Shown piece by piece: positions 16,610-40,429 of a stretch of DNA of 64,000 nucleotides. The notes below the pieces were generated by a model, which was not told the origin of the DNA, ran no database searches, and saw only the letters and a program-made list of their open reading frames with translations. The position numbers were made by a program, and so were the translations under genes. Where the stretch lies: contig CAWEHK010000036.1 of the NCBI GenBank assembly GCA_963808625.1, forward strand, positions 62,936-126,935. Direction: 5' to 3'. Positions within the stretch are counted from its first letter, which is position 1, and each line of letters opens with the position of its first letter. Source of the DNA: an uncultured delta proteobacterium (GTDB taxonomy: Bacteria > Desulfobacterota > Syntrophobacteria > Syntrophobacterales > Syntrophobacteraceae).

Positions 16610-16625
16610 TGGCACATATCGTGCT
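16610..16625 (+). promoter_or_regulatory. Putative sigma54 (-24/-12) promoter for the rhodanese-transglutaminase-Rhs operon
   Basis: TGGCACATATCGTGCT has GG and GC at canonical spacing, ~300 nt upstream of 16931. Confidence 0.45.
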
Positions 16626-16930
16626 CAGGTAATACCCGGCGTTCCCGGCTGCCTCCCGATCTCGCAATCATAGCCGGGAGCAATCGCCCGAAAATCGTGC
16701 GGTATTCCTCGGTATAGGCATGCGGGGGTGGCTCCGCCTCCTTTGGGGAAGGTCTCCTGGGGGTGACGAACTTGGTCATCTCCCTGCCGGTTTTGGGCGA
16801 TCGAAGGAAATCGTGCCTGTGATCGGGTGCCGAAGCCCTGACTCAACTCGGTCCTTCACAGGGAACTCCGTGCCGTGTTCACGTTGGGAATCGCAGTGAC
16901 CGTTGACTTGCTCTTCATTTTCGCCGTTCC

Positions 16931-18176
16931 ATGGGGTTCGCAACCTGGGGGTCGGGGCTGATGCCGAGAATTGTCTCCCTCTTCATCATCGCGTCAGCCT
17001 TCATTACTTTGGTCCTGGGCAGTGTCGGCATAGCAAAACAGATGAGCCGCGAGCGCCCTGACGCTTTCGACTTTGGGACCATTTCCAACGACGCCGAAAA
17101 CCGGCGGACCTTCCTTATCCCCAATGCCCGCGACCAGAAACTGCACCTTCTCACGGCCGCATCCTCCTGCGCGTGTGTGCAGATTCTATCCTACCCTCAA
17201 GAGATCGCACCCCATCGGAAAGGGGAGGTCACCGTGCGATGGCTGCCCTCCGAGCCGGGTGAAAAGGCCTGCAAGATCGTTTTCGAAACCGACGATCCCG
17301 GCAATGGACCCCTCTCATTTGAAATAAGGGCGAGCATCAAACCATCTCCCGGAGCAGCGCCGGGAGAACTGTCGCATCCTGGAGAACGCCGGAGCGGCAC
17401 CAAAATACCGTCTGAATGGCTCACGAGAAGACTGAAGCCGCGCGATCCCGCCCTTGTGGTTTCCGTGGAATCCATTTTGAAGGAGATGAAGGGAAAGCCG
17501 GAAGCGATCCTGGTTGATGTGCGCCCTCGGTCCGAGTTCGAGAAATCGAGGATTCCGGGCTCCATCCAGGTCGATTTGTTTGCGGTTAAGACAAAAAATT
17601 TGCTGAAGGCAAAACCCCTGGTCCTGGTCAACGAGGGATACAGCTGCAGCCGGCTTGAAGAAGAGGTGAAAGGGCTCAGGGATGCAGGCTTCATGGCGTC
17701 GATTCTTGACGGTGGCCTCAGCGAGTGGCGCCGGAAGGGCGGTCCCCTCGAAGGCGATGCCTTTGCGCAAAAGGACCTGAACAAAATTCCTCCCCAGATC
17801 TTTTTCCAGGAAAGGGTCTATGACAACTGGGTGGTGATCGATGCGACAACGGCAAACAAACACATGGCGGCATCCCTTTTGCCGGAAAATATTCCCATGG
17901 TTTCATCGAATGGTCCGGAACCGCCTGCGGCTCAGCTCAAAGCGATCATGGCCAGGCGTAAGGCCATGCCATCTCTTTTCTTCCTGATCCTCGATGACGA
18001 CGGCAAAGACCAGGAAAGGCTGGAGAAGCTCCTGACGGAGGCGGGCATCAGCAGGGTGTTCTTCCTCGATGGCGGCATCGCGGGGTATCGGTCCTTTCTC
18101 GAGCAGCAGGCAGAGCCTGCTGCAATCCCAAGAACATCCAGAAAAGGTGGTCGGACGATGCGCACCCTGCCCTTAA
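16931..18176 (+). CDS. Exported DUF1573 (Ig-like) plus tandem rhodanese-like domain protein; probable indel ~18110, corrected C-terminus ...RCAPCP
   Basis: Signal peptide; SSCACV...EIAPHRKGEVTV...FETDDP (DUF1573-like); LVDVRPRSEFEKSRIPGSI, SILDGGLSEW and VFFLDGGIAGY (rhodanese folds). Confidence 0.75.
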
Positions 18177-19082
18177 AAAGAGCCAGCCTGATTTGTGCCG
18201 GATTTCTGTGCAGTTTTTGCCCTCACAGCCTTCTTCACCGCAAAGCATCTCCCGCAGGTCATGGCAAAGGGCTCGCGCATGGCAGCCCCGGCGCCGGTCA
18301 CGATGCGGCATCTCCAGTACCGCTTCAGCTTGCAGAACGGCGAGACTCAGCTCTTGGACAAGGCGGAGCTCTGGACCTATGCCCCGGTAAAGCTGACGGC
18401 GGCCCAAAGGTGTGTGAGGCTTGATGCCAACTATCCTTATGAACTGACCGTTGACGACCTGGGGAACCAGGTCCTTCATTTTACGTTCCACGACCTGCCC
18501 CCGTTTTCGACCAAAGTGATCCGCATCGAGGCCGATGTCGAGTTGCTGAACTCCCCCCAGACGATTCCGGCGGCGGACCGCAATGACTTCCTGCGAGCGG
18601 AAAATCACATCGAATCGAACAGCCCCGAGGTGCTTGGCCTGGCGAAAAAGCTCAAGGCCTGGAATACGCTCACCACCGCCCAAAATATCTTCCGCTGGGT
18701 TTCGGAAAACATCCGGTATGCCGGATTTCACGCTGCCGACCGTGGGGCCCTCTATGCTCTCAGGAAAAGAGAGGGGGACTGCACCGAGTTCATGTCGCTT
18801 TTCGTGGCTTTGTGCCGGGCCAACGGCATCCCGGCACGAGGGGTCGGCGGCTACGTCTGTTCCGGCGACACGATCGTGAAAGCCGGCGACTATCACAACT
18901 GGGCGGAATTCTATTGGGACGGGACCTGGCACCCGGTGGACCCCCAGAAGAGAGCCTTCAGAGAACACCCGGAACAATACGTGGCCATGAGGATCATCAG
19001 CGGTCAGACGGCAACACCGATGGGAGACTCGAATCGCTTCCGCTTCGTTGGGGAAGGGCTCAAGGTGAGAATGGAATCATGA
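18158..19082 (+). CDS. Transglutaminase-like superfamily protein, N-terminally anchored (indel near the start)
   Basis: Catalytic triad motifs GDCTEF, YHNWAEFY and WHPVDP. Confidence 0.88.
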
Positions 19083-39100: not shown

Positions 39101-40186
39101 ATGCCCCGCGCGTCATCGTGCCCTTCACCCTGGCTGACAATACGTGGTATTACTGGAGGGCCGGCGCCAGGGATGAACACGGTTCGACCAGCGGGTGGAC
39201 CGGTGTCCACTGCTTCTTTGTGAACAACAATGGTGCTGACGATCCTCCGGAAATCGTCATGGAAGCCCCTTCAGCGCCGCTTTTCACGTCTGCCGGACCC
39301 GTTCTCGTCTCCTGGAAGGACAACGACCCGGACAGCGATGCCGATATTGCCCTCTTCTATGACGCGGTTGGCGCCGGATTTGCGGGCACGCTGATTGCCG
39401 ACGGGCTCAAGGAAGATGCTGACGGTCCTGCCGATGCTTATCTCTGGGATATTACCGGCACGCCGGACGGCACTTACTTTGTCTATGGAACGATCACCGA
39501 TGGGACGTCTTCGCGGGCGAGCTACGCACCGGGAACGGTGACCATCGATCGGGCGCCGCCGGTGGTTGCGGCAACACCGCGCGGCGGGAGCTATGCCTCT
39601 CCTCAGGATGTTGTGCTCACCGCCAATGAACCGGCAACGATCTTCTTCACCCTCGATGGGACCGACCCCACCAGGGACTCTCCCTGCTACGGCACTCCCC
39701 TTCCGATCACGAAGACCACGACGGTCAAATTCCTTGCCGTGGACCGGGCCGGCAATGAGAGCGGCGTCAAGGCGGAGACTTACACCATCGGCGAGACGCG
39801 CAGCGTGTTGATCGCCGGCGCTGTCTACAACTATCCCGAGTATCCCGACTGCAGCAAGCGCGCGGTCAAGTACCAGGGAAGCATGCTGCTGGCTGTCACC
39901 GGCCCCTCCGCTCCGTCCGGGACTGCTTACGTACGCTTTCGCCAAGCCCGGGATCGCCCTGGTCAGCACCAAAATCAAGGAGGTGACGGTCTCGGGCAAT
40001 CTGGTCACGGTCAGCGGGACGGCAAAAGTAAACGGCAAAAGCGGTTACACTTTCACCGCCACCATCAATGACGGGAAAAAGGACAGCTTCGGCATCGTCA
40101 TCAAGAAACCGGATGGAAGCGCCTACTTCAGCGCTCCTCTGAAACCTGCCTGCGGAGGTGAGATCACCATAAAACCTCTCGGATAA
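36173..40186 (+). CDS. Large secreted protein (~1,340 aa): conserved N-terminal 'CARVKIEIxQELTLERQAF' (wreath-like) domain, Ig-like repeats, Asp-rich Ca-binding motif, Fn3-associated domain; frameshifted
   Basis: RBS and signal peptide MRKKLNF...PLVFA; fragments 36044-40186 contiguous; DTDCDGLADAWE...DADGDGWTDLEEF; FTLDGTDPT...YGTPLPI. Confidence 0.8.
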
Positions 40187-40377
40187 GGTGTCGATTCGAA
40201 GACGATTAAGGAATTATCTGAGAATATGTCAAAAACGCCGCTGATCGTCATTCCCGCCGAAAGTCTGAATCCAGGTTTTCCTGAGGATTCGTGGACGCAT
40301 GCTAAAAGTCCTAAATGCGTCAACTTCTAGGATGTTTCCATGTGGTGCTGTGTGCTTACAGGAGCTGAAATAGGTTC

Positions 40378-40429
40378 CCGGACATCATTGCCAGCATGCT
40401 TGTGGCGGTGACGTCCGGAAGATTTTTTT
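40378..40429 (+). terminator. Terminator-like hairpin after the secreted-protein operon
   Basis: CCGGACATCATTGCCA...TGGCGGTGACGTCCGG followed by AAGATTTTTTT. Confidence 0.5.

Follow-up and report, generated by a model that had tools for sequence, protein, structure and literature searches.

Rhs toxins that are exported by the Sec pathway and the type II secretion system (T2SS) have been described as proteins with a signal peptide, RHS repeats and a variable C-terminus, with an immunity gene downstream, and some of them bear transglutaminase and immunoglobulin (Ig) domains (Zhang et al. 2012, PMC3482391). Bacterial teneurin-like proteins are Sec-signalled YD-shell toxins with immunity genes and no obvious delivery machine; they are evolutionarily linked to adhesion proteins of animals, and their display and delivery are called open (PMC13018210). 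Here, we analysed a 64,000-nucleotide stretch of DNA (called the window here) from an uncultured delta proteobacterium of the Syntrophobacteraceae (GCA_963808625.1, contig CAWEHK010000036.1, positions 62,936 to 126,935). The window carries a locus of five genes for a membrane-anchored pseudo-rhodanese, a transglutaminase-like enzyme, a giant Rhs protein, a small putative immunity protein and a large partner protein. The locus probably encodes a two-armed surface toxin/adhesin, in which a stalk-Rhs protein with a swappable putative toxin is bound to an Ig-rich partner and exported by Sec and the T2SS.

The transglutaminase in the available text of Zhang et al. (PMC3482391) is an inactive domain joined to the N-terminus of the toxin, whereas in the window locus the enzyme has a gene of its own and its triad is intact. 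Table 1 of the same paper gives no signature neighbor genes for the Sec/T2SS route, whereas the window type has a conserved partner, a pseudo-rhodanese and, sometimes, a T2SS within the operon. The likeness to the teneurin-like proteins lies in the Sec signal, the YD shell, the immunity gene and the link to animal adhesion (PMC13018210). However, the part held in common with animals is the YD shell in the teneurin-like proteins, and in the window type it is a module made of the neck of the Rhs stalk and the N-terminal domain of the partner (called PN here). No mention of a transglutaminase or a rhodanese was found in the available text of PMC13018210. TIP, FN-plug and NHL were absent from the Pfam matches before the YD shell, no search having been aimed at them, and the teneurin-like structures (PDB IDs: 9PT5, 9IFO) were matched by the Rhs shell only. 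The partner, the pseudo-rhodanese, the separate active-type transglutaminase and the split module thus appear to be absent from both accounts (PMC3482391, PMC13018210), as far as their available texts go. The gene set was described in no paper found by a search that stopped short of most subscription papers and of the supplements of bioRxiv papers, PMC3482391 and PMC13018210.

The Rhs effectors of type VI secretion systems (T6SS; PAAR/VgrG-Rhs, for example PDB IDs: 7Q97, 7PQ5) have the Rhs barrel and the core cleavage motif in common with the window type. In contrast, the window type is without a PAAR or VgrG domain or a neighboring Eag or VgrG gene and has signal peptides and an Ig stalk of 3000–4000 amino acids. 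In the LapA/LapG system, a giant Ig adhesin goes with a transglutaminase-like enzyme that acts in its release, and pili make use of donor-strand complementation. The first is similar in pairing a giant Ig protein with a transglutaminase-like enzyme, but the enzyme here belongs to PF01841 and not to the family of LapG, and no type I secretion system genes were seen. In the second, a strand completes the sheet of another chain, but here two different giant proteins are concerned, and no usher genes were seen.

The five co-oriented genes lie at 16.9–40.2 kb in the order given by the initial annotation, as borne out by the open reading frames (ORFs) of the window and by colinearity with the intact genes of a genome of the same genus (G006), which encode a 338-residue rhodanese, a 5514-residue Rhs protein, a small protein and a 1332-residue partner. 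The features are listed below; motif-level coordinates are interpolated from the ORF list and the G006 alignment and are not an exact mapping.

16610–16624 (+): sigma54-like site with one mismatch, at chance level
16931–18176 (+): DUF1573 Ig domain and tandem pseudo-rhodanese, membrane-anchored, with a C-terminal CxxC (Pfam DUF1573, Rhodanese); one frameshift near the 3′ end
18170–19082 (+): transglutaminase-like (papain-fold) enzyme, signal-anchored (PF01841); start approximate
19165–29800 (+): N-terminal part of the Rhs gene, with signal peptide, β-helix repeats and Ig/FN3 stalk (domain scans); frameshifted
29798–31331 (+): neck of the Rhs gene (Ig, transthyretin-like, Ig) with a Cys/Gly-rich tail, colinear with residues 3730–4230 of the G006 Rhs protein
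~30510–30605 (+): predicted donor β-hairpin of the neck (structure models; interpolated)
30924–30926 (+): conserved Cys codon of the neck (Cys conservation; interpolated)
31307–34655 (+): Rhs/YD barrel, with the Rhs core and its DPxG-type cleavage motifs at the end (PF05593, PF03527)
34655–35290 (+): variable C-terminal putative toxin, low in GC and frameshifted; end approximate
35373–35803 (+): putative immunity gene of ~140 codons in two fragments, 31% GC, assigned from position and GC only
36173–37520 (+): partner gene, signal peptide and PN domain of three Ig-like sandwiches (homologue alignment, structure model)
36293–36295 (+): invariant Cys codon in the N-terminal strand of PN (conservation; interpolated)
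37520–40186 (+): variable Ig/TSP3/FN3 arm of the partner and C-terminal post-COAP-1-like domain, the latter below cut-off
40378–40429 (+): intrinsic-terminator-like hairpin and U-tract (folding energy against shuffles)

The fused homologues indicate that the neck and PN are two halves of one module, split across two bacterial genes. PN comprises ~410 residues at the N-terminus of the partner and is followed by the variable Ig arm. It had no Pfam match and no PDB sequence match. The model of PN shows three Ig-like sandwiches with a predicted local distance difference test (pLDDT) value of 93, and fold searches gave generic Ig matches only (best Z 7.7, root-mean-square deviation 2.5, 97 aligned). 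In the fold search, the neck domains singly match PapD/ASH-like and transthyretin-like domains. The PN-type extracellular module forms 3068 clusters at 50% identity. Neck and PN are on one chain in 76 of 120 animal-type matches; such chains occur in Saccoglossus (P0090, three times), molluscs, a shrimp and a sponge adhesion G protein-coupled receptor (GPCR), and the brachiopod and annelid matches have PN only. Fused bacterial forms are found in Nostoc PCC 7120 (WP_044523664) and G681. The fused homologues, which bear cadherin, Calx-beta, SRCR or GPCR domains, are proteins of the adhesion type. Among 54 fused linkers parsed, the neck cysteine motif is kept in 50 and a furin-type site is present in 35. 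In many Beta- and Gammaproteobacteria, the stalk ends just past the neck, and the Rhs part is encoded by another gene, which has a signal peptide of its own. A PN tree (quick method, unrooted, 52 rows) sets the split forms apart from the fused ones and places the animals beside the fused bacterial forms; it names no donor and no order of events. Rhs-fused and Rhs-less matches number 27 and 93, a comparison that under-counts the Rhs-fused forms because it covers only proteins of up to 3031 residues.

In two bacterial proteins (P0127 and P0135), PN comes straight after the Rhs core, where a toxin would sit, and P0127 has a stalk and neck downstream of PN too. Many neck+PN proteins of ~2200 residues (P0198–P0270) come from large metagenome contigs; they are probably sponge host genes, since the four that the tree includes cluster with Dysidea, a sponge. 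As a candidate for the identity of PN, the Wreath domain of the sponge aggregation factor (AF) was rejected: two PN-type motifs gave 0 matches in the Grice AF supplement, the Wreath hidden Markov model itself not having been run. Wreath resembles PN in being extracellular and all-β and in occurring in sponge Calx-beta proteins, but it is described as vWFD-like, and PN consists of three Ig-like sandwiches (PMC5400394, PMC11670116 and PMC12749355, available texts).

The search for PN gave 247 genome loci. We examined the best 80, which do not count as samples independent of one another. They come from Desulfobacterota, Beggiatoa relatives, Elusimicrobia, Nitrospirae and Fibrobacterota. Another component of the set is present at 70 of the 80 partner loci, always on the strand of the partner (transglutaminase at 49, rhodanese at 28, Rhs at 25, stalk or neck at 23). 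Most of the remaining 10 have short flanks, and at L042 the stalk and Rhs lie farther off. Whether the order rhodanese, transglutaminase, Rhs and partner recurs with variable cassettes was a check set by the initial annotation. The gene set does recur across phyla, but its order is not fixed: the transglutaminase is usually immediately upstream of the partner, and the order otherwise varies. PN was found in 16 of 401 genomes of the phylum (two of them partial matches) and in 3 of 301 genomes of the phylum Pseudomonadota, seed included. Carriers of the gene set that are culturable and non-pathogenic include Eleftheria terrae, Methylomonas koyamae and Variovorax.

Further genes accompany some of these loci. 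In Methylomonas (L126:2435–3025), a cohesin-domain gene lies upstream of the stalk, and in G104, G386 and G440 (L106, L109) conserved secreted genes of ~310 codons lie 3′ of the rhodanese; both hint at a surface-anchoring route. At the T2SS-linked loci (L127:2721–7988 and L144:1–4275), two more conserved secreted genes precede the stalk, one for an IPT/TIG protein and one for a glycine-rich protein of ~510 residues without a Pfam match. The start of the partner is duplicated in G465.

By architecture, the Rhs gene encodes a Rhs polymorphic toxin and not a T6SS effector. The YD/RHS repeats, the Rhs core and a hypervariable C-terminus after a DPxG-type motif are all present, and the G006 copy matches solved Rhs and teneurin-like structures. 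The 27 C-termini that were compared fall into 21 similarity groups, and most of them precede unrelated small genes. Sub-threshold Pfam matches were seen for 3 of 26 scanned C-termini (PLA2-like, CHAP and PT-TG). The window tip had no match in Pfam or in further identity searches, and its atlas lead, a TNT-type NADase (0.90), is weak, with only 109 shared features. The putative immunity gene had no Pfam match. Orphan modules of Rhs core, C-terminus and immunity gene stand between the main Rhs gene and the partner at L097, L103 and L118. The proposal of the initial annotation is supported in so far as a Rhs toxin/adhesin gene set recurs that is routed by Sec, is independent of a T6SS and has variable toxin/immunity cassettes.

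In the main rival reading, the stalk–partner heterodimer serves aggregates chiefly as an adhesin or as a matrix scaffold, with the Rhs cargo optional and often a non-toxic recognition tag. Rhs-less neighborhoods exist, five Cys-rich C-termini have no immunity genes (L031, L071, L072, L081 and L083), the Rhs–PN fusions P0127 and P0135 are toxin-less, and the fused homologues are of the adhesion type. However, unrelated small genes follow most C-termini, some C-termini resemble PLA2 or CHAP, the orphan Rhs modules occur at three loci, and the window cassette is low in GC, so that we regard a scaffold as unlikely, if well worth keeping in view.

The neck is predicted to bind PN by β-strand complementation. 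One cognate pair was modelled, with the G006 sequences standing in for the frameshifted window copy. The complex score was 0.85 in three runs, and the best of three controls scored 0.00. The mark set for this score was met by 116 of 157 solved complexes and by 2 of 215 mismatched pairs, a calibration that is only roughly applicable to the alignments used. Between runs, 76% or more of the contacts coincide, with a partner pLDDT of at least 84. In the model, a neck hairpin (residues 239–269) pairs with the N-terminal strand of PN (residues 1–32); when the neck was folded alone, the pLDDT of this hairpin was below 50. The most conserved residues of both the neck and PN are interface residues. PN has Cys4 in 100 of 101 rows, and the neck has Cys371 in 44 of 53; both residues are in interface segments, thus suggesting an inter-chain disulfide.

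A pass in the complex test is common for split-gene halves, so the score supports binding but falls short of demonstrating it. This tendency, together with the single cognate pair that was modelled, would suit two proteins that are co-secreted without binding, whose halves evolved separately and whose complex score reflects ancestral likeness only. We consider this rather improbable, as no solved template was found by sequence, the interface residues are the most conserved, and the hairpin is not resolved in the neck alone.

On one point, the initial annotation was not confirmed as written: in the window, neither giant gene consists of a single ORF, the Rhs gene being in ~20 overlapping fragments and the partner in at least six. 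Elsewhere in the assembly, rpoB is in five pieces, mutS in five and cstA in three, and inside the window there are a truncated infB and a fusion of rimP/nusA. Since these genes are broken alike and the relatives are intact, assembly indels are the likeliest source of the breaks, and the frameshifts of the locus are most likely sequencing or assembly errors. The genes dnaE and accD are unbroken in the same assembly, which suggests that the error rate is uneven along it. Breaks per kb in the locus are above the average for housekeeping genes (~11 breaks in ~14 kb, six genes), as a pseudo-operon that has decayed in this genome would have it. But essential genes of the window are broken to the same degree, and 18 of 20 aligned segments are free of in-frame stops (the other two span frame changes); decay is distinctly improbable.

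The rhodanese, transglutaminase, Rhs and partner genes all encode hydrophobic N-termini, in agreement with the initial annotation. Here and throughout, signal peptides were called from N-terminal hydropathy, a heuristic without SignalP. Families of the T6SS, of contact-dependent inhibition (CDI) and of Tc toxins, which were said to be missing, are indeed absent from the 33 window ORFs scanned. Export by the T2SS is likely; there is good reason to expect it of the Eleftheria type, and for the window genome (G000) it is an extrapolation. The genes of Eleftheria terrae come in the order stalk, Rhs, ankyrin immunity gene, partner, gspG/F/E, three unknown genes, cohesin-secretin, pseudopilins, rhodanese and transglutaminase, and L144 repeats this order as far as gspF. 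In G000, gspG/E/F are present and unlinked to the locus.

In 18 of the 41 carriers no TssC was found, and the gene set itself appears to be independent of a T6SS. The component is enriched (23 of 41 carriers versus 48 of 401 genomes of the phylum), above all among close relatives (8 of 9 carriers versus 13 of 51 others), but that the Rhs protein is cargo for a T6SS encoded elsewhere is highly improbable, since fused and split Rhs genes bear signal peptides, no PAAR/VgrG family match was found in the locus, only 3 of 13 strong carriers in the phylum sample have TssC, and in four genomes that are 99–100% complete (G104, G116, G428 and G440) Rhs adjoins PN and TssC was not found. Based on these four genomes and the signal peptides, we read the enrichment as shared lifestyle or ancestry.

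The pseudo-rhodanese is, as judged from its residues, not a catalytic sulfurtransferase. The cysteine of the active-site loop is absent from both rhodanese domains in the 33 aligned rows; the loop position was set from the rhodanese consensus, and the alignment was read by eye. The CxxC of the initial annotation is in place: it is found at the C-terminal end in 27 of 32 homologues, and the window copy has both the CxxC and the stop codon. The triad of the transglutaminase is intact, as claimed (Cys196, His234 and Asp249, numbering of ORF 18195). In the PF01841 alignment, the Cys is present in 47 of 47 rows, and the His and the Asp each in at least 90%; the nearest solved structures are 3ISR and 6G49. 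This subfamily occurs in 6 of 401 genomes of the phylum, five of which are PN carriers. The enzyme was not found in the three closest genomes of the same genus with neck, Rhs and partner (G001, G004 and G006), which retain the rhodanese. It would thus be accessory or dispensable, and its role as an optional maturation enzyme for cross-linking or release is the least certain of our assignments.

From these results, a mechanism can be proposed. The stalk-Rhs protein and the partner carry signal peptides, as do the split-off Rhs genes, and would be exported by Sec. In the periplasm, the neck hairpin is predicted to pair with the first strand of PN, and a disulfide between Cys371 and Cys4 may link the chains, with the anchored CxxC pseudo-rhodanese as a putative redox or folding helper. 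The folded heterodimer would then pass the outer membrane through the T2SS. By analogy with the Rhs family, autocleavage would release the caged C-terminus, which would harm non-kin on contact, and the adjacent small gene would protect the producer. Only tentatively do we take this further, to an undescribed contact-competition platform: a T2SS-exported, disulfide-locked, two-armed complex built on a split ancient adhesion module, with interchangeable Rhs toxins on one arm, interchangeable adhesive arms on the other and its own folding enzymes. The module would live on in fused form, often with a furin-type site between its halves, among the giant extracellular proteins that sponges, molluscs, a crustacean and a hemichordate possess.

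Several points weigh against the surface toxin/adhesin that we favor. Besides the frequency of TssC among the close relatives, the failure to find TssC, Hcp, PAAR and the VgrG OB-fold in G000 is weak, because this genome is 84.6% complete and TssC is present in 5 of 7 genomes of the genus. The T2SS linkage within the operon is confined to two related loci, and the presence of gspG in G000 shows nothing, since gspG is near-universal in the relatives (57 of 61). An immunity-like gene is absent after 8 of 27 C-termini, and 23 of the 26 scanned had no Pfam match. Stalk, PN and rhodanese occur without Rhs in the stretches read of G096, G310, G376 and G386, and in L084 (Desulfonema magnum) PN stands alone, 40 kb of sequence having none of the other components. 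Cys371 and Cys4 do not form one of the 25 best-ranked contacts. The claims of binding and export are all predictions, modelled on G006 and not on the window copy.

A sigma54 promoter had been proposed upstream of the locus. The window has seven matches to this motif, and 18 of 100 shuffles yield as many; upstream of the G006 locus, there is only a sigma54-like site with two mismatches. The hairpin at the other end is strong, as expected of a terminator (z −4.5, 0 of 200 shuffles equally stable), yet a general terminator scan did not list it. Just past it, a pair of small genes (40950–41490, +) resembles, by eye, an antitoxin and a PemK/MazF-type toxin. An IS21-like element follows (42028–45659, +), in which a CHC2 zinc finger and a Toprim primase-like domain are fused to, or contiguous with, the transposase ORF, and IstB comes next. 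The window also holds McrB-type AAA and McrC restriction genes (46506–48886, −) and an intact 1414-residue G8 and CEMIP β-helix protein (59718–63962, +). A divergent gene (15136–16122, −) encodes a secreted GIFT/DUF4350-like protein without an NCBIfam match. It ends in a hydrophobic segment and a basic tail, which we take to resemble a sorting signal.

For the display of Rhs toxins without a T6SS, CDI or Tc complex, the gene set supplies named parts and a predicted interface with testable cysteines. It also brings to light an unnamed extracellular module that is common to bacteria and invertebrates, and the bacterial halves offer a way to its structure. If true, this would be a second link between bacterial toxins and animal adhesion, besides the teneurins. 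In syntrophic and sulfate-reducing communities, the system could shape who joins an aggregate.

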